From positions 1-58,183 of IMG/VR virus record IMGVR_UViG_3300032156_000010: a DNA stretch of 58,183 nucleotides; one strand, 5' to 3'. Every line of letters starts with the position of its first letter. Positions within the stretch are counted from its first letter, which is position 1. Source of the DNA: a virus. Taxonomy: Duplodnaviria > Caudoviricetes. Both the position numbers and the translations under genes were made by a program. Shown here in pieces: positions 140-56,991 of this stretch. Below the pieces are notes generated by a model. The model saw only the letters and a list, made by a program, of their open reading frames with translations. It had not been told where the DNA came from and did not search any database.

Positions 140-157
140 CTCATAAAGTCGTTAAGA

Positions 158-286
158 CCGGGTGTCGTAGGCGACGGATACTTCGACTTATAATCGAGAG
201 GTCGCGGGTTCGATTCCCGTCTGAGTCTTCGGGCTCGGTAGCTCAGTGGCAGAGCGCTTCCGTACCGTCACCGGCTGTTACCCCGG
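158..286 (+). ncRNA. yrlA: YrlA-like Y RNA with circularly permuted tRNA-like domain
   Basis: Terminal stem CCGGG/CCCGG; GUCGUAGG...UACUUCG...CCGGCUGUU; T arm GCGGG-UUCGAUU-CCCGU precedes an acceptor stem closed by a UUCG loop, then D arm UA-GCUC-AGUGGCA-GAGC; directly upstream of Ro60; followed by a U tract. Confidence 0.85.
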
Positions 287-5077: not shown

Positions 5078-5476
5078 ATGGCGCTTGAAACCGTGAATAT
5101 CAGCAAGGAGCTTCTCGGCCTGATCGGAGCCGGGGTGGCGATGGCGATTTTGGGCCAGGTTTTTATGTTCGTCAAAGTGATCCTAAGATGGGCCGGCGAT
5201 ATGAAAAAGAAAAACGAGCAAAAACGGATCGATGACGAACGGCAGGTTGCCGGCAATCCCGGGCCGCTGGTATCCGCCGCCCCCCTACTGACTAACGGGC
5301 AGTTGAAGTTTGCCATCAGCGAGGGTTTGAAGCCAATGCAAGAAAGCGTGAACGCTTTAAACGTGACGGTCCAAGTGTTGACGTCACAATTTGGGGGATT
5401 CAAAGAGGCCTGCTCTGAGAGGCGCAAGGAAATATGGGGCGCGATCGACGTGAAGCAAAGAAGGGGGAAGGAATGA
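5078..5476 (+). CDS. membrane protein (holin/antiholin-like)
   Basis: N-terminal TM segment followed by basic stretch; lysis neighbourhood. Confidence 0.45.
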   Translation: MALETVNISKELLGLIGAGVAMAILGQVFMFVKVILRWAGDMKKKNEQKRIDDERQVAGNPGPLVSAAPLLTNGQLKFAISEGLKPMQESVNALNVTVQVLTSQFGGFKEACSERRKEIWGAIDVKQRRGKE

Positions 5477-5892
5477 AGGGCAAGGCCAGGACGCCCGATC
5501 TTTATCTATCCATCGTCGAGCATTTCGACGCCGCTCACTTTCTGCCTCGTTACCGGGGCCCCTGTCGCCGAATGCACGGGCACACCTGGCAGGTAAAGGT
5601 GACGGTGACGCCGGAGCCGGATTTGATAATCAAGGACGGGATGCTCATCGATTTCAAGGATTTAAAAAAGATCGTCCGCACTGCCCTTCCCGATCACCGT
5701 CTCATCAACACCTTCCGGCCTTTTTTCAAGGCCAACCCGCCGACGGCCGAGAACGTGGCGCTCTATCTGGCCGAAACGCTGAGGCGAAAATTACACGTCA
5801 AAAAACTCCTCCTGTCGGAGATCGAGGTATGGGAGTCGGAGAAAGCGAGCGCGAAGCTCGTTTGCCCGATCCTGTTCTATGAAAACTCTTAA
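5473..5892 (+). CDS. queD: 6-carboxytetrahydropterin synthase QueD
   Basis: FDAAHFL...CRRMHGHTW...GMLIDF..LK...DH...PTAENVA...VWES. Confidence 0.92.
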   Translation: MKGKARTPDLYLSIVEHFDAAHFLPRYRGPCRRMHGHTWQVKVTVTPEPDLIIKDGMLIDFKDLKKIVRTALPDHRLINTFRPFFKANPPTAENVALYLAETLRRKLHVKKLLLSEIEVWESEKASAKLVCPILFYENS

Positions 5893-6490
5893 CATTAACG
5901 AGTGCTTTTACAGCTTGCAGGGGGAGGGCGCCCGGGCGGGGATGCCGGCTGTTTTTCTCCGCCTGGCCGGGTGTAATCTGCGCTGTGAATTCTGCGACAC
6001 CAAATACGCTTACGACCAAGGCCAGGAATTGACAACCGAAAAGGCTGTCTGTTTGATTCATTCCAAAGCTCAAGCCGTTAATCCGCCCGTATGCAGAAAC
6101 GTCATCATAACCGGCGGCGAACCGGCGATACAAATGGATGGGCTGATGGACCTGGTGAGAAGATTGCGCGGGTGGAAACCGGCCTGGAACATAGGCATTG
6201 AGACAAATGGCACTATCGACATAAGCGGTCTCGGTCTGGACTGGATCACCGTCAGCCCTAAGCCGCCCGCCCCGCTCATCCAACGCACGGGCCATGAGTT
6301 AAAAGTCCTCTTTTTCCCGGAGCTCGAACGAAGAATCGGGATCGAAATTATTCGAAGTACGACCGAGTTTCTTTATCATTTCATCCAACCCGTCAGCATG
6401 AAGAACGTCGAGGCGGTGGTGCTGTATATAAAAAAGCATCCGCATTGGAGGCTGAGTCTACAGTGGCAGAAACTAATCGGTATCAAATAA
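5879..6490 (+). CDS. queE: 7-carboxy-7-deazaguanine synthase QueE (radical SAM)
   Basis: FYSLQGEG...FLRLAGCNLRCEFCDT, ITGGEP, IETNGT, TVSPK, WRLSLQ. Confidence 0.95.
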   Translation: MKTLNINECFYSLQGEGARAGMPAVFLRLAGCNLRCEFCDTKYAYDQGQELTTEKAVCLIHSKAQAVNPPVCRNVIITGGEPAIQMDGLMDLVRRLRGWKPAWNIGIETNGTIDISGLGLDWITVSPKPPAPLIQRTGHELKVLFFPELERRIGIEIIRSTTEFLYHFIQPVSMKNVEAVVLYIKKHPHWRLSLQWQKLIGIK

Positions 6491-6612
6491 CCTGGGAGGA
6501 AATCTATGAGCGCCTCGAGCGCCTGCCCCCGGGCCGCCCGTGGGGAGTGCCGAGGGGCGGAGCGGTGCTGGCCGTCGCTGCCTTATTTGAAGCACATCGA
6601 ATATGCCTATAA
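6463..6612 (+). pseudogene. N-terminal remnant of a phosphoribosyltransferase-like gene
   Basis: GTG start after GGAGG; translates MAETNRYQITWEEIYERLERLPPGRPWGVPRGGAVLA then stops after 49 aa; GVPRGG is a type I PRTase motif. Confidence 0.6.
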
Positions 6613-6967
6613 AAACAAGATCCGCGTCCACGGCTTCGCCATGAATTCCCAAATGGTCCACGAGACGCTGCCCTTTTTCTCGATCGACAGTTCAAGCTGG
6701 ATGGCAGTCACGCGGTTTGGCAAGGCGAGCACGTTCAATGAAAAAACGGGCCGAGTTGAATACGTCGCCGTCACCCGCAAGATGCTTGCCCAGCCATATC
6801 TAAAATCCCGCATGGCCGCCAAGCTTTTTCCGCGCCGCCTGCGGTACGATCAGCCCGGAATCCGAGAGTCCGGCGCTTGGGCTCTTTTTAAGGCGGAGGC
6901 GGCCTAGAACGCGTTGGCGCGGCATCTGACGGCGATGTGGGCGGCCAAAGGAGTGACATGGGAATAA
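6570..6967 (+). pseudogene. C-terminal fragment of a TGT/DpdA-like transglycosylase with in-frame TAG at 6905-6907
   Basis: RVHGFAM...PFFSIDSSSW motif; lacks N-terminal half; frame continues after TAG as NALARHLTAMWAAKGVTWE* and overlaps the next ATG. Confidence 0.6.
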
Positions 6968-7953
6968 GACACGTTATTCTTCCGATTGAGAGGATCGCCT
7001 CCCGCTACAGCCTCCAGTGGTGGCGATGGCTGGCGAGGAGCGCCTACCACCTTGAAGCCAAGGTCGAGTTCGTCGGCAGTTACGTCTCGCAGAAGATCAA
7101 GGAGGGAGAATTCCTTGACGTCTACGGCACCAACCTCTATAAGGCCCATCAACTTGCCCGCCTCCTTCGCCTGCTCCGTTCCGATCACACTTCCGATTTC
7201 AACATATTGATTTGCGACGGCTGGTATCCGGGCCTCGAGAGCCTGGCCTATGTACGGGACGCGGGCCGCAGGAGGGTCAGGCTGACTGCAATACTCCATG
7301 CCGGTACTTATGACCCGTGGGACTTTCTGACCCAACGAGGCCTAACCTCGTGGGCAGAGCATATCGAGAGAGGGTGGTTCCACCTGTTGGACAGGGTTTT
7401 CGTTGCCACCAGGTTCCATCAAAACTTGCTTATTTCGGCCCGCCAGGTTGACCCGGCCAAGATCAGCGTCGTCCGCTTTCCCGTCCACTACAATCCCCGC
7501 CACCACGGGAACCCTCACCGTGAACCGATCGTCGTATTTCCGCACCGCCTGGCCCCCGAGAAAGATCCCGAAGCGTTCACCCGCCTTCACGAATGCTATA
7601 TAACCCGCTACGGAGCGACGCCCGACGGACTCCACTTCGTCACGACGGCGGCCGGAGGCGGCTGCCGGAATAAGAGCCAATACTATGCGCTCCTCTCCCG
7701 CTGCCGCGTGGCCGTCTCTACGGCGCTGCAGGAGACGTTCGGAATAGCGATGCAGGAGGCCGTCAACGCCGGCTGTATGCCGGTCGCTCCGAATCGACTT
7801 TCCTATCCCGAAACACTTCGCGGTCATCGCCTTTACGAGAGCGAGGACGAGGCGGTGGATTTGATTCGGGAGGGGCTTTTGGATTATAAATGTCCTCGAG
7901 TGCTGTATCCCGGGGACATGGACGATATTCTCAGGAGGTTTTTATGTCAATAA
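6958..7953 (+). CDS. GT-B (GT4-like) glycosyltransferase
   Basis: HAGTYDPWD, FPHRLAPEKDP, STALQETFGIAMQEA, PNRLSYPE. Confidence 0.85.
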   Translation: MGIRHVILPIERIASRYSLQWWRWLARSAYHLEAKVEFVGSYVSQKIKEGEFLDVYGTNLYKAHQLARLLRLLRSDHTSDFNILICDGWYPGLESLAYVRDAGRRRVRLTAILHAGTYDPWDFLTQRGLTSWAEHIERGWFHLLDRVFVATRFHQNLLISARQVDPAKISVVRFPVHYNPRHHGNPHREPIVVFPHRLAPEKDPEAFTRLHECYITRYGATPDGLHFVTTAAGGGCRNKSQYYALLSRCRVAVSTALQETFGIAMQEAVNAGCMPVAPNRLSYPETLRGHRLYESEDEAVDLIREGLLDYKCPRVLYPGDMDDILRRFLCQ

Positions 7954-8291
7954 CCCGCTGGGTCAAAGCCTACTGCACTTTCGCCGGGATCCATTTTTGG
8001 CCGGGCGCCCCGAAGGGCCATTTCCTCGGCCACCCCCACCGGCATCTATTTCACGTCCGGGCCTTTGCCGTTGTCGGCGGCCCAGACCGCGAGATCGAGT
8101 TTATCGCGCTCAAGGAAAAAATTGAACGCTATTGCATCCGTTATTTCCGCGGCCCCCACACGCTAAGTTGCGAGATGATGGCCGAGCAGTTATTGCGGCA
8201 CTTCCGCCTGGCCCAATGCCAGGTGGACGAGGACGGGGAGAACGGGGCGGTCGTGATGGAGGAGGGATGGTGGAAGGAAAAAAAAGAATGA
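7944..8291 (+). CDS. QueD-like T-fold protein (second PTPS-like gene)
   Basis: GIHFWPGAP...LGHPHRHLFH...DREIEFI...SCEMMAE...VDEDGENGA. Confidence 0.65.
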   Translation: MSITRWVKAYCTFAGIHFWPGAPKGHFLGHPHRHLFHVRAFAVVGGPDREIEFIALKEKIERYCIRYFRGPHTLSCEMMAEQLLRHFRLAQCQVDEDGENGAVVMEEGWWKEKKE

Positions 8292-8345
8292 AACCGACAA
8301 ATTTTAAAGGTTCGAACACGGTACCGAGATAGGGGAGAAAATAAT

Positions 8346-9050
8346 ATGAGCGAGGAAAAGCTGCCCGCCGCCATCAAGCCCTACGACATCAAGGCCATGC
8401 GGGAGATTGAGACGAACCGCCTGGTAAAGGCCGAATGGAACTATAAGGACGATGACGAATTTAAATCGGCCCGCCTCCAAGAGAACCTGAAACGGAACGG
8501 GCAGATTGTCAACCTCATCGTCCGCCGCCTCACAACCGGTTACTACGAGGTGTTGGACGGCAATCACCGGCTGGACGCCATCCTCAAACTCGCCTGGCCC
8601 TCCGTGATCTGCTACGATCTGGGCGAGATCTCCGACGCCAAGGCTAAGCGCATCGCCGTGGAGATCAACGAGACGCGCTTCACGACCAATTATCCGAAAT
8701 TGGCGCAGACCATTAAGGACCTCAAAGAAGAGTTTTCCGACGACGATCTCCTCGCCACGCTCCCGTTCACCGAGCGCGAGTTCCAGGCACTTGAGGATAT
8801 GACCGTGGAGTTCGACTGGGAAAAGGCGGGGGCGGAGGCAGGCGCCAAGCAGAAGACCCTCGAGGACGAGATGGGCGGGGACAGGATCAAAATGGAATTC
8901 ATGCTGACAATCGACCAGGCGGGCGTCGTCAACGAGGCCGTTGCCCGCATCGTACTCGGCCTTAAACTCGAGGGATCGTACAGGAACAGCCGGGCTTTGG
9001 AGCTCATCGCCGCCGATTCCATGAATACCCCGCTGGAGAGTTTGACGTAG
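8346..9050 (+). CDS. ParB/Srx N-terminal domain protein
   Basis: LVKAEWNYK...NLKRNGQIVNLIVR...YEVLDGNHRL. Confidence 0.85.
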   Translation: MSEEKLPAAIKPYDIKAMREIETNRLVKAEWNYKDDDEFKSARLQENLKRNGQIVNLIVRRLTTGYYEVLDGNHRLDAILKLAWPSVICYDLGEISDAKAKRIAVEINETRFTTNYPKLAQTIKDLKEEFSDDDLLATLPFTEREFQALEDMTVEFDWEKAGAEAGAKQKTLEDEMGGDRIKMEFMLTIDQAGVVNEAVARIVLGLKLEGSYRNSRALELIAADSMNTPLESLT

Positions 9051-9057
9051 GACCGAG

Positions 9058-9702
9058 ATGGGAAAATATAAGCAAGACTCTAAGTTGCTCGACATTATCG
9101 AAAGCCTGAAGAATAAACGAATTTCGGGCGCCGACCTCACGACCCGCTTGAAGCGGAAAATCGTGCAGTTCTTTATGACCGAGCACTCGGAACTCACTAA
9201 CCGTTTTGTCGCCTCGCTCCTCGCCTGTTCGGAATCCCTGGTTTGTAAAATCAAACATCAACTCGTGCGCGATATGTCGTGGGAAATGGATCGGATGGAC
9301 ATAAAGGAAATCGCCACGGCGCACAAGATCAAAAAGACGGAACTCCAACAGCGGGCCATGCGAGCCGGAGATTACGCCCTGGCCTGGAAAATTGAGATGG
9401 ACTATCTCGACAGCCTCCGACGCCTCGGGTTTATCTTTGAGGCGCCCAAGAGACTGTTGATATCCGACGATCCGCTCGCCCTCCGGAGCGAACTCGAGAG
9501 GTTCTTTGATGAATTCGACGTTAGAAACCCGGCGGAATTCGCCCGCCTCCTCCACGCAGCCGCCGCCACGAACGGCGGCGCCAGGAGACTTATCGGCCTC
9601 CCCGCCGCCATTCCAGCTGTTGTTGTTGGAAGCGCCGACGGTGGAGCTGATGGTGAGACAAGCGGGCTTAAAGATCCTATTCCGCCGGGGGATAAAGACT
9701 GA
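9058..9702 (+). CDS. terS: probable terminase small subunit
   Basis: HTH-like N-terminal region; directly upstream of and overlapping terL. Confidence 0.55.
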   Translation: MGKYKQDSKLLDIIESLKNKRISGADLTTRLKRKIVQFFMTEHSELTNRFVASLLACSESLVCKIKHQLVRDMSWEMDRMDIKEIATAHKIKKTELQQRAMRAGDYALAWKIEMDYLDSLRRLGFIFEAPKRLLISDDPLALRSELERFFDEFDVRNPAEFARLLHAAAATNGGARRLIGLPAAIPAVVVGSADGGADGETSGLKDPIPPGDKD

Positions 9703-11194
9703 GGCCGACGTCCGCGATGCCGTCGATTGGCTCAAGGAGCCGAAGGTCGGTACTCACGTCAATTGCCGCGAGACGGAGCCCTCTCATTGTTCTCCATTCC
9801 GCTTCCTCTCCGATATCACCTTGGCTGCGGGCAAGGAATGGATTGCTTGGGCCAACCGCGCCGGCTCCAAGTCGTACCTGGCCGCGTTGTCGGTGTGGCT
9901 GAGATCAAGTACGGTGCCCCGCCTCGAGACGACAATTCTCGGAGGATCGCTCGAACAGTCGCAGAAGGCGTACAAGGCGATCGATTCCTTTTGGGCCGTC
10001 TCCGGCATGGGCGAGGAACTGCTCGAGAAACCGCCGTTGCGGAGATCGACCGTCTGGAAATCGGGCAGCCAGGTGGCCGTCCTCACGGCCTCCTCGCGCT
10101 CCGTCCGCGGCCCTCATCCGCAGGTATTGATCATGGACGAGATCGACGAGATGCCCCAGGAAATCTATGACGCCGCCCTCTCCCAACCCACCTCCAAGTA
10201 CGGAGCCGCATCAATGCTCGGCCGCCTCTCGACAAATCATCATCTGGGAGGAGTCATGGACCAGGCGCTCGATCGAGCCCGGGCAGCCGGGATGCCGCTT
10301 TACAAATGGTGCGTCTGGGAGTGTCTGGCGCCGTGTCTGGACTATCGCTGTTCGACCTGCGAGTTGGCGCCCTACTGCCCGGGGGAACACATGAAGAAGG
10401 CCGACGGTTACTACGCCGTCGAAGATCTCCTCGCCAAACTGCGGACGATGAGCTATCTGACGCTCGAAGTGGAATGGTTCTGCCGTAAAGTCGGCTCCTC
10501 GGATTTGGTGTATGGTCACCAATTCGGTCTCGATAAACATTCCGGCCCCTGGCTCCCCTCCTTCTCTGATGGCCTCCCGGCACACCTTTCAATCGACTGG
10601 GGGGGCGAGGTGTTCTCGGTCGGCTGCTGGCAGCAATTTGATTTCGGCTGGGTCCGCGTCGATGAGGTCTATATGCGGAATACCACCAACACCCGACTCA
10701 TGGAGGAGTGTAAGACGCGGCCCTGGTGGGCGAATGTCGAGGATGCCGTGGCCGACCCGTCACGCGACGACCTGATCAGGGAATGGAGGGCGGAGCACGT
10801 CCGGTTCCTCGCTGCCGATAACCGCATCGACGTAGGGGTGGGAAAAACGCGGGACGCGCTGGCGCCCGTCATCGGGCCACCCCGTTTTTATGTCAACCGC
10901 CGTTGCCGCGATTGGCTCCGTGAGGTACAATCCTACAAGGAGAAAAACGGGAAGCCGGTGAAGAAGAATGATCACACTCAAGATGAAACTCGATATTTCA
11001 TTATGGCTCATATTGCTGGCCGGGGCCGGGGCCGGATCATCCTGCCTACGGCGCTGAGGAAGCGCGAGGAGGAATCACCGAAACCGTCCGCGCCCATGCC
11101 GGTCGTTGCCGGCGCCGAGAAAAAAGAGATTGGAGGAAACGATGGAAAAGAAAGCGCCGTCCCGAGAAGCCGAGGGCGGATCTTCGTTCCCTGA
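9650..11194 (+). CDS. terL: terminase large subunit (start approximate)
   Basis: Walker A-like ANRAGSKS, VRGPHP, Walker B LIMDEIDE, nuclease SIDWG and NDHTQDETRY. Confidence 0.9.
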   Translation: MVRQAGLKILFRRGIKTEADVRDAVDWLKEPKVGTHVNCRETEPSHCSPFRFLSDITLAAGKEWIAWANRAGSKSYLAALSVWLRSSTVPRLETTILGGSLEQSQKAYKAIDSFWAVSGMGEELLEKPPLRRSTVWKSGSQVAVLTASSRSVRGPHPQVLIMDEIDEMPQEIYDAALSQPTSKYGAASMLGRLSTNHHLGGVMDQALDRARAAGMPLYKWCVWECLAPCLDYRCSTCELAPYCPGEHMKKADGYYAVEDLLAKLRTMSYLTLEVEWFCRKVGSSDLVYGHQFGLDKHSGPWLPSFSDGLPAHLSIDWGGEVFSVGCWQQFDFGWVRVDEVYMRNTTNTRLMEECKTRPWWANVEDAVADPSRDDLIREWRAEHVRFLAADNRIDVGVGKTRDALAPVIGPPRFYVNRRCRDWLREVQSYKEKNGKPVKKNDHTQDETRYFIMAHIAGRGRGRIILPTALRKREEESPKPSAPMPVVAGAEKKEIGGNDGKESAVPRSRGRIFVP

Positions 11195-42335: not shown

Positions 42336-42357
42336 TTGAAAACCTCCTCATTGAAAT

Positions 42358-42427
42358 TTGACCTGCCTTTCATCAGCGCCAGGAGGTCAATCCTAGCGGA
42401 CCGGGCCGCTGATGGCCCGGTTTCGGC
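42358..42427 (-). ncRNA. type II hammerhead ribozyme D (AA insertion after core)
   Basis: GCC-GAAA-CCGGGCC..GGCCCGG-UC^CGCUAGGA-UUGACC-UCCUGGCG-CUGAUGA-AA-GGC-A-GGUCAA; loop I/3' pseudoknot; cleavage 42399/42398. Confidence 0.75.
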
Positions 42428-42428
42428 T

Positions 42429-43605: not shown

Positions 43606-43627
43606 CGAAAACCTCCTCCTGAAAGAT

Positions 43628-43698
43628 TTGACCTTGCCTCATCAGGTTGTAGACGGTCGGGCTACAACGACCGAGGCCCCGTGGTCCTCGGTTTCGGC
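43628..43698 (-). ncRNA. type II hammerhead ribozyme C (canonical core)
   Basis: GCC-GAAA-CCGAGG..CCUCGG-UC^GUUGUAG..CUACAAC-CUGAUGA-GGC-AA-GGUC; cleavage 43669/43668. Confidence 0.9.
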
Positions 43699-43700
43699 TT

Positions 43701-44276: not shown

Positions 44277-44298
44277 TCGAAAACCTCCTGAAAAAATT

Positions 44299-44363
44299 TT
44301 GACCCGCCTCGTCAGATCGTGGTCGGTCAAGCCACGATAACCGGGCCGGAGCCCGGTTTCGGC
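44299..44363 (-). ncRNA. type II hammerhead ribozyme B (canonical core)
   Basis: GCC-GAAA-CCGGG..CCCGG-UU^AUCGUGG-CUUGACCGA-CCACGAU-CUGACGA-GGC-G-GGUCAA; 6-bp pseudoknot UUGACC/GGUCAA; cleavage 44339/44338. Confidence 0.9.
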
Positions 44364-44365
44364 TT

Positions 44366-44901: not shown

Positions 44902-44921
44902 TGAAAACCTCCTTCGAAAAT

Positions 44922-44990
44922 TTGACTTGCCTCATCGGGCTGCGCGTTGTCATCGCGCAGCGACAGGCCCCGGCGGGGGCCTGTTTCGGC
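44922..44990 (-). ncRNA. type II hammerhead ribozyme A (U4C core variant CCGAUGA)
   Basis: GCC-GAAA-CAGGCCCC..GGGGCCUG-UC^GCUGCGCG-AUGACAA-CGCGCAGC-CCGAUGA-GGC-AA-GUCA; cleavage 44962/44961. Confidence 0.8.
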
Positions 44991-44992
44991 TT

Positions 44993-45782: not shown

Positions 45783-45813
45783 TTTTCAAAGATCAATTGC
45801 TACGCCCGGTAGC
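45783..45813 (-). promoter_or_regulatory. boxB-like hairpin plus boxA antitermination site
   Basis: GCUAC-CGGGC-GUAGC hairpin then UGAUCUUUGAAAA just after the predicted TSS. Confidence 0.7.
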
Positions 45814-45820
45814 TGCTTAT

Positions 45821-45849
45821 ATAATAAGTATATCCATTAGTATTGTCAA
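45821..45849 (-). promoter_or_regulatory. leftward sigma70 promoter
   Basis: TTGACA (45849-44), 17 bp, TATTAT (45826-21). Confidence 0.8.
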
Positions 45850-45922
45850 GACTCTACAGACAATTTATGGAAAATAATCAACTCCGTAAGTTTCTTAAAT
45901 TAAAGGGGTTACGCTTTTTGGG

Positions 45923-55358: not shown

Positions 55359-55752
55359 AAAATGGGTCGAGATCTCCGACCTGGTGGAAAAGATCGGCGA
55401 GGATTTAAGCGCGATGATGAAGACACTCTATTCCCTCAGTAATTTGTTTGCCTATCTCGCCGGGCTTCTTAACACGCCGGAAATGCGGGCCGCCCTCTCG
55501 GAGCTCCGCCGGGAGGACCAGACAAGTGGATCGTTGGAGATCGAGGATGAGGAAGCCGAGAAGTATATCAAACTGGCCGGTTACGAGACGATCAACGCCA
55601 TCCTCGAGGATGGAACATCCGGCTGGCTAAAATTGAATGCCGCCCTCATTCTTTCTGAACGTATAACCGTTGATGATTTTCGCGAGGCTAGGGATTCGAT
55701 CATCCGGGCCCTAAAAAAGAAGGGCCTTGAATTTGGGCCGACACGGCCCTGA
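55342..55752 (+). CDS. hypothetical protein
   Basis: Operon context. Confidence 0.55.
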   Translation: MNTPPEKWVEISDLVEKIGEDLSAMMKTLYSLSNLFAYLAGLLNTPEMRAALSELRREDQTSGSLEIEDEEAEKYIKLAGYETINAILEDGTSGWLKLNAALILSERITVDDFREARDSIIRALKKKGLEFGPTRP

Positions 55753-55765
55753 AAGGAGAAGGAAT

Positions 55766-56050
55766 ATGGACGTAGCGGTATTAGCAGCAGCCGTCGTGTT
55801 GGGCGTCCAGGTTATTAAGACCGGGTTGAAAGAGTTGGGGCTGATCGTCCAAGGATGGGGAGCTGTCCTCTTGGCGATCTTGGCTTCGGCGGCCGTCGTC
55901 TCCTTTGAGGCGGTTCACCAGGTGATACCTTTTAACCTGGCCCTCTTTTGGATCTTCGCCCAGGTCGCCTTTTTCGCGGCTACCGGCAAGGCGTTCTTGA
56001 GCTACACCATCAATAAGCTCAAGGCGCCAACGCTTCCTCCGGTACCCTGA
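55766..56050 (+). CDS. holin-like multi-TM membrane protein
   Basis: Hydrophobic helices; RBS. Confidence 0.55.
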   Translation: MDVAVLAAAVVLGVQVIKTGLKELGLIVQGWGAVLLAILASAAVVSFEAVHQVIPFNLALFWIFAQVAFFAATGKAFLSYTINKLKAPTLPPVP

Positions 56051-56053
56051 CTA

Positions 56054-56124
56054 CCCTGACGGTGAGCGGGGTCGGCTTCGGCCGGCCCTAAACCCCAGTC
56101 CGGGTACGCAAGGCCCGGCCAGGG
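56054..56124 (+). ncRNA. probable circularly permuted (P5-type) twister ribozyme
   Basis: CCCUG..GGU-GA-GCG-[GGGUCGGC UUCG GCCGGCCC]-U^AA-ACC-CC..CCGGG-UACGCAAGG-CCCGG..CAGGG; T1 GCG/CGC and T2 CC/GG pseudoknots possible. Confidence 0.6.
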
Positions 56125-56146
56125 AATTTGAACAAGGAGGAATCGA

Positions 56147-56446
56147 ATGGTACAAAGACGGGACATGGATCCCAGGATGGAGCTCATCGAGCGGATGAGG
56201 ATTAAAGTCAGAGCGGATTGCTCTAAGGAAATTGCAGACATCGAAAACCGAAAGGCGAAGACGATGGAATGGCTCGACATGGAGGAGCTACGCGTGGCGA
56301 AGTCGGCGCTGACGGGCGGGGTGATATCACTGACGCTGGAAGAAGATGCCCGCGGTCCGAAAGTCACGGACAACCGGTCGGGCGAGACAACGCGGCTGCC
56401 CGGCCCGCTGCCGGAGGAACAAAAAAAAGAGGAGAAAGAAGCGTGA
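56147..56446 (+). CDS. hypothetical protein
   Basis: RBS AAGGAGG. Confidence 0.65.
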   Translation: MVQRRDMDPRMELIERMRIKVRADCSKEIADIENRKAKTMEWLDMEELRVAKSALTGGVISLTLEEDARGPKVTDNRSGETTRLPGPLPEEQKKEEKEA

Positions 56447-56646
56447 TAAAAAAGCCAAAAGGAAAGGGTCTGGCAAGTCTGATCGCCGCCACAATTGCCT
56501 TCGCCCAGGTCGTGCTCATCGTTCTCAAACTGGACCATCGGATTGATTCTTGGCTTTTGGCGCTGAGCCCGCTGTGGAGTTTTATGATTGTAATTATCAT
56601 ATTGCTGGCGATCGGGACATTCATTGACAAAGGACCAACTGGATGA
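56443..56646 (+). CDS. small 2-TM membrane protein
   Basis: VLIVLKL...IDSWL.ALSPLW; GTGA overlap. Confidence 0.6.
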   Translation: MIKKPKGKGLASLIAATIAFAQVVLIVLKLDHRIDSWLLALSPLWSFMIVIIILLAIGTFIDKGPTG

Positions 56647-56991
56647 AAGAAGCTGGCCGGAGTGACCGGAGACCCGTAGCAGGGCGGTGTCGACGGGTTT
56701 TTTGCCTGGGTTCCCTACCCATTTCATTGACCCCTCCTTTTTGGACTTGCCTACTCGCCCGCCCCACTCCGGCCGGCTCTTATTGGAGGGACTAATGACG
56801 GTAAAAGAATTGGCTGCCGATCTGAGGGCGGCCCAAAAGAGAAATTCGGGCGCTTATTTGATTCTATCTCAAGTGGCGGCAATTTCGGAAGACAGAATCC
56901 GAGATATTGCCGAAGAGAAAGTTCTGCCGACCGTCTATGAAAAAGGCGTACTTGAGGCCTTGAGATAAAAAGAAGAAGGAAGGATAAATAA

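Follow-up and report, generated by a model that had tools for sequence, protein, structure and literature searches.

Twister ribozymes are defined by three stems (P1, P2 and P4), two pseudoknots (T1 and T2) and ten or more conserved nucleotides of the loops L1 and L4, and catalytic roles have been given for a guanine and for the adenine at position +1 (PMC5408937). A structural paper cited in the same work suggested that an altered P2 length could disturb the active site. In a high-throughput test of more than 2,600 type-P1 twisters, about 94% were active; cleavage was uncorrelated with the length of P2 or of L4, and pseudoknot mismatches and L4 insertions reduced it on average (PMC11662667). 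In the case of T2, double mutants indicate that the inner pair tolerates any Watson-Crick pair, the text being silent on the outer pair (PMC5113685). A role in the processing of polycistronic transcripts has been proposed for ribozymes of this kind (PMC5408937, PMC6765202 and PMC8782182).

Here, we describe an element at 56054-56124 on the plus strand of a phage genome, which we compare with the circularly permuted Twister-P5 family (RF02684, clan CL00120), with natural phage twisters from IMG/VR and with the type II hammerheads (RF02276) of the same genome. We put the probability that it is a type-P5 twister self-cleaving ribozyme, carried by the polycistronic message of the rightward operon, at a little over three in four. 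Its identity as a twister is well supported, and its folding, its cleavage at 56089/56090 and its effect on expression are predicted from the sequence.

Genome setting and permuted layout

The window, that is, the whole stretch of DNA analysed, corresponds to a complete virus record: it is 58,183 bases long, has direct terminal repeats and includes genes for a portal, a tape-measure-like, a ParB-like and a RusA-like protein. The strand-block map gives a rightward block from 246 to about 39750, a leftward block from 45542 to 39968 and a further rightward block from about 45565 to the end, and at about 45800-45850 two divergent promoter-like sites face apart (45849-45821 on the minus strand and 45797-45825 on the plus strand). 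The candidate begins three bases after the stop codon of one cistron of the rightward operon and ends just before the AAGGAGG motif of the next, a placement that a first-pass annotation had already pointed out and that the sequence bears out (Table 1). The products of the upstream and downstream cistrons are both without a PHROG match. At the other end of the window, a tRNA-like gene at 155-230 (+), which ARAGORN reads as tRNA-Ile with anticodon tat and which matches the Rfam tRNA model at 29.5 bits, stands directly upstream of a TROVE/Ro60-family gene (246/321-1850, +). This pair may resemble bacterial Ro60 with its tRNA-like Y RNA.

Table 1. Features of the candidate twister, its flanking cistrons and the hammerheads of the leftward operon. 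R1 and R2 are models built from natural phage twisters (see below).
Feature	Position	Strand	Description or basis
Upstream cistron	55766-56050	+	94-aa small hydrophobic protein; stop TGA 56048-56050
P5, 5' strand CCCUG	56054-56058	+	pairs with 56120-56124 in MFE fold; open stem defining the type-P5 permutation
P2, 3' strand GGU	56061-56063	+	sequence, MFE fold, RF02684 alignment
G-A of loop L1	56064-56065	+	aligned to invariant GA of RF02684, R1 and R2
T1 pseudoknot, L1 side GCG	56066-56068	+	Watson-Crick complement of CGC 56107-56109, 3 pairs
P1 hairpin, 8 bp, UUCG tetraloop, closed end	56069-56088	+	sequence, MFE fold, RF02684 alignment
U-A-A	56089-56091	+	aligned to invariant UAA (RF02684, R1, R2); predicted scissile bond U56089/A56090
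P2, 5' strand ACC	56092-56094	+	sequence, MFE fold, RF02684 alignment
T2 pseudoknot, L2 side CC	56095-56096	+	complement of GG 56112-56113, 2 Watson-Crick pairs
P4 stem (5 bp, 56100-56104/56114-56118) and loop L4 (56105-56113)	56100-56118	+	sequence, MFE fold, RF02684 alignment
P5, 3' strand CAGGG	56120-56124	+	sequence, MFE fold
RBS AAGGAGG (56134-56140) and start ATG (56147-56149) of downstream cistron	56134-56149	+	sequence
Downstream cistron	56147-56446	+	99-aa protein
Type II hammerhead	42357-42428	-	Rfam, 46.3 bits
Type II hammerhead	43627-43699	-	29.4 bits, below gathering score 37
Type II hammerhead	44298-44364	-	Rfam, 37.7 bits
Type II hammerhead	44921-44991	-	31.6 bits, below gathering score 37; core CCGAUGA (consensus CUGAUGA)

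In its predicted fold the stretch has the layout of a circularly permuted (type P5) twister, and all parts of the permuted layout listed in the first-pass annotation are present in the sequence where it had placed them. With RF02684 the candidate shares the order of its elements (P2 3' strand, G-A, T1, P1 hairpin, U-A-A, P2 5' strand, T2 and P4/L4), every letter of L1 and L4 that is invariant, the ability to form both pseudoknots and, as described below, a match over the full model. The open stem P5 is positioned between the 3' strand of P4 and the 3' strand of P2, and the motif ends in it. When the RF02684 alignment is set against the consensus given in PMC5408937, the conserved L1 and L4 letters are all there, namely G-A, U-A-A, the U and AA of L4 and the closing G-C. 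By the roles and chemistry set out there, G56064 occupies the position of the general-base guanine, A56065 that of the partner of the L4 adenine and A56090 that of the general acid. The candidate departs from RF02684 in three respects: its P2 has three pairs and not four, its outer T2 pair is C-G and not G-C, and its L4 has an extra A after the first U. This loop reads U, the extra A56106, the CGC of T1, AA (56110-56111) and the GG of T2, nine bases in all, and all three covariance models used (RF02684, R1 and R2) treat A56106 as inserted. Among the conserved pairs, only the outer T2 pair differs from the consensus, and there both bases are changed.

The nested helices P5, P2, P1 and P4 are all part of the MFE fold, the z-score of which is only -1.73, with 10 of 200 shuffles folding equally well. 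So modest a value would also be expected if there were no twister here, and two GC-rich intergenic hairpins, serving as a nuclease processing site, a terminator-like structure or a protein-binding site, mimicked the layout by chance. Other GC-rich structured gaps without an Rfam match do occur in this genome (40766-40875 and 41796-41880), and searches at default filters are silent on the candidate. An intrinsic terminator as such was rejected, there being no U run after P1. The searches described next make a chance mimic very improbable.

Covariance models and chance expectation

A scan of the whole window against Rfam at gathering thresholds returned two type II hammerheads and a tRNA-like match and no twister; a 301-nt scan around the candidate, with E up to 10, gave no twister either, and neither did a genome search with RF02684 at default filters. 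A rescan of 67 nt with lax filters, prompted by the Twister-P5 consensus from a weak match in a related phage, to which the candidate bore a close resemblance by eye, then matched RF02684 along the whole model (positions 1-58), scoring 35.5 bits (E 1.1e-6). The earlier scans were thus blank because their filters had dropped the candidate. The score misses the Rfam gathering score of 37.6, which is an operational cut-off, by 2.1 bits, and RF02684 penalises a 3-bp P2 and cannot credit compensated pseudoknot pairs. The weak match itself, at 13.8 bits to Twister-P5 in L009, was rejected as an L4-like hairpin and no twister.

Two further models were built from natural IMG/VR phage twisters with the candidate left out, R1 from 70 sequences with a 4-bp P2 and R2 from 45 sequences with a 3-bp P2, and both were run over the whole window, on both strands and with filters off. 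In each case the candidate was the sole significant match: R2 gave it 26.8 bits (E 1.8e-5; runner-up 8.9 bits) and R1 19.6 bits (E 0.0025; runner-up 9.6 bits), and these unfiltered searches found no second twister on either strand of the window. The covariance-model search that the first-pass annotation had named as a check was therefore blank in its initial form and positive once the 67-nt scan and the two natural models were used, and all three scores support its view that the element is probably a twister.

A layout descriptor, written after the candidate had been seen and allowing any sequence in T1 and T2 so long as the two sides were complementary, matched one site in the window over both strands. 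Applied to 300 dinucleotide shuffles, it matched 4 sites, and none of the 300 combined a P1 of at least 6 bp with a P4 of at least 5 bp. A pattern of the candidate's conserved letters alone, with no demand for pairing, had 26 matches in metagenome contigs; P2 could pair in 1 of the 26 and a P1 stem of at least four pairs was formed in none. Two matches to the candidate's signature pattern in viral contigs did not form hairpins either, as judged by eye. A chance mimic would have to account for the agreement of three covariance models in full-length alignments, with E values from 0.0025 to 1.1e-6, for the rarity of the layout in shuffled sequence and for the absence of the helices from all 26 of the sequence-only look-alikes.

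Departures from the consensus and their natural counterparts

The departures of the candidate were compared with twisters from two scans of IMG/VR, one for this layout (at least 120 stretches, 91 unique well-formed copies) and one for a 3-bp P2 (52 stretches, 45 unique well-formed copies), and with a descriptor set of 223 unique matches in phage loci. Counts for the CC/GG subclass were taken from the descriptor table; a MAFFT alignment misplaced the 5' half and no pairs were counted from it. A 3-bp P2 was found in 122 of the 223 descriptor matches, and the candidate's own version, GGU/ACC, in 13 of the 45 copies of the second scan. For T2, the consensus GC/GC accounts for 156 of the 223 matches, AC/GU for 27 and the CC/GG of the candidate for 11; the departure at T2 that the first-pass annotation had recorded is real and is a natural variant. 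The middle pair of T1, mostly G-C or U-A in the consensus and C-G in the candidate, was paired in all 91 natural twisters listed and covaries among them (U-A 74, G-C 11, C-G 3, A-U 2 and U.G 1), and T1 as a whole, GCG/CGC in place of GgG/CcC, recurs in 2 of the 223 descriptor matches.

These departures of the pseudoknots, C-G as the middle pair of T1 and C-G as the outer pair of T2, are compensated, and the models score neither T1 nor T2 as pairs. In the natural sets, the T1 pair and the T2 pair left free by the search pattern vary yet stay paired (in one set, the T1 pair alone had been left free). Phage twisters with a 3-bp P2 are, like the candidate, variable in T1 and always complementary there, and those members of the descriptor set that have CC/GG in T2 show six different complementary forms of T1. 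The closest in form are copies in two IMG/VR contigs (L162 and L174), which have P2 GGU/ACC, T2 CC/GG and the same layout as the candidate, and which likewise lie downstream of a stop codon, with an SD-like motif and a start codon following. They differ from it in having the standard 8-base L4, the candidate combining a 9-base L4 with a clear 5-bp P5. More generally, an SD-like motif follows within 40 nt in 65 of the 91 natural phage twisters listed from the first scan and in 40 of the 45 from the second. Twister arrays were also seen in IMG/VR phage contigs: ten copies are spread over about 5 kb of L196 (about 6330-11140), seven unique ones occur in L175 and five pattern matches in L198, and a single contig accounts for four twisters as L063 and two as L074.

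This leaves the extra A of L4, also reported by the first-pass annotation and confirmed here as A56106, as the one feature without a credible natural precedent in the sample, in which the consensus loop has eight bases. A two-base L4 start was found in 4 of the 223 descriptor matches, all of them weak and AT-rich; a pattern combining an L4 insertion with a 3-bp P2 and a canonical T2 occurred at no place in viral contigs, and neither the 223 descriptor matches nor the signature patterns supplied a credible counterpart. The insertion is also the starting point of another reading, according to which the element is a twister by descent whose cleavage was lost or slowed by base 56106 and which is kept as a structured spacer, the hairpins P1 and P4 protecting RNA ends or setting the distance to the RBS. 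The lack of a precedent agrees with this, as do the reduction of mean cleavage by L4 insertions (PMC11662667), a score lying just below the Rfam cut-off and the occurrence of imperfect ribozyme copies in this very genome, such as the hammerhead at 44921-44991 with its CCGAUGA core. On the other hand, the catalytic positions and both pseudoknots are all intact, the changes in T1 and T2, being compensated, suggest that selection acts on the tertiary fold rather than on hairpins alone, and most natural twisters in the high-throughput test were active despite their imperfections (about 94%; PMC11662667).

Related sequences bear on the same point. Runs X2 and X4 belong to another study, and their contigs over this stretch are roughly 92% identical to it. 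Their listed differences from the window number 40, of which 20 fall in 55742-56053 and the other 20 in 56151-56248, leaving 56054-56150 with none; up to seven more differences of the X2 contig are unplaced and, from their equal support and the row order, probably lie beyond 56248. The block without a listed difference is 97 nt long, begins exactly at the first base of P5 and ends just past the start codon, and the extra A56106 is among its bases. It takes in the single-stranded core, which a hairpin spacer would not need, and a structured spacer in place of an active ribozyme is in our view unlikely. An antisense ORF (56002-56727) was rejected as the cause of this conservation, since the same ORF spans the strongly diverged 56151-56248. 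None of the runs listed as containing the candidate stretch is on record as RNA.

Searches with both flanking proteins and with the ParB-like protein found no relatives in viral contigs. The terminase led to distant phages, at 59% and 55% identity, and a loose first look at their records, which are 34-68% complete, found no DNA homologue of the candidate and no twister by RF02684 or R2, a negative that carries little weight. Among GenBank phages nothing matched at the DNA level, and the terminase matches there were all remote. The nearest terminase relative (G001, a contig of L001; 59% identity) has two type II hammerheads on its minus strand, at 5411-5479 and 9254-9320, both above the Rfam cut-off (47.2 and 38.4 bits).

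Hammerheads of the opposite operon and the proposed role

The first-pass annotation had inferred that self-cleavage is used in both divergent operons. This holds for the presence of ribozymes and falls short of their number, since four type II hammerhead elements, not two, are found in the minus-strand operon (Table 1). Each lies between a stop codon and an RBS, and their stems covary. The two that score below the gathering threshold (43627-43699 and 44921-44991) emerge only when less than about 100 nt is searched and are lost with default or medium filters. These hammerheads share with the candidate the stop-to-RBS slot of a polycistronic operon and presumably the same job, cutting the message between cistrons; they differ from it in having an unrelated fold and active site, in belonging to the divergent operon of the opposite strand and in being present in four copies. 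In the same leftward operon, and in the same type of slot, are the two GC-rich structured gaps named above (both on the minus strand), for which Rfam gave no match at E up to 5. The two gaps align with each other, with 22 predicted pairs in common, three of them with compensating changes, and may be copies of an unclassified RNA motif.

If the candidate acts as a type-P5 twister, P1, P2, P4 and P5 would form during transcription, L4 would then dock via T1 (GCG/CGC) and T2 (CC/GG), and, with G56064 as the general base and A56090 as the general acid, the chain would break between U56089 and A56090. As far as its position in the sequence can tell, the message would most likely be cut between the cistrons 55766-56050 and 56147-56446. 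The upstream product would end one base past the stable UUCG-capped P1 hairpin and carry a 2',3'-cyclic phosphate, and the downstream product would have a 5'-hydroxyl, start 57 bases before the start codon and keep the P4 hairpin together with an unpaired RBS. The stability and the translation of the neighbouring cistrons would thereby be uncoupled, as the four hammerheads probably do for the cistrons of the opposite operon.

A variant of the ribozyme reading is that A56106 is not a defect and instead tunes the twister to be slower or conditional, leaving a set fraction of transcripts uncut. We consider this quite unlikely; if true, cistron ratios would be set differently in the two operons, by fast hammerheads in the leftward one and by an attenuated twister in the rightward one. 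If the candidate is simply fully active, the tolerated architecture of L4 would still be extended, and in this sense the insertion is a natural test case for the tolerance of the twister loop.

Neither the kind nor the place of the ribozyme is new, twisters near hammerheads and near phage genes being already in the literature, and no new principle follows from the locus; what is new here is a single extra L4 base that is unprecedented in the sample. For annotation, the consequence is that in one genome the standard procedure loses, at the filter stage, both a 35.5-bit twister match and two hammerheads out of four; counts of phage ribozymes obtained at default settings are therefore likely to be underestimates. 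For the biology of the virus, the two ribozyme classes in the stop-to-RBS slots of divergent operons fit the published hypothesis that polycistronic messages are cut into pieces with different fates.
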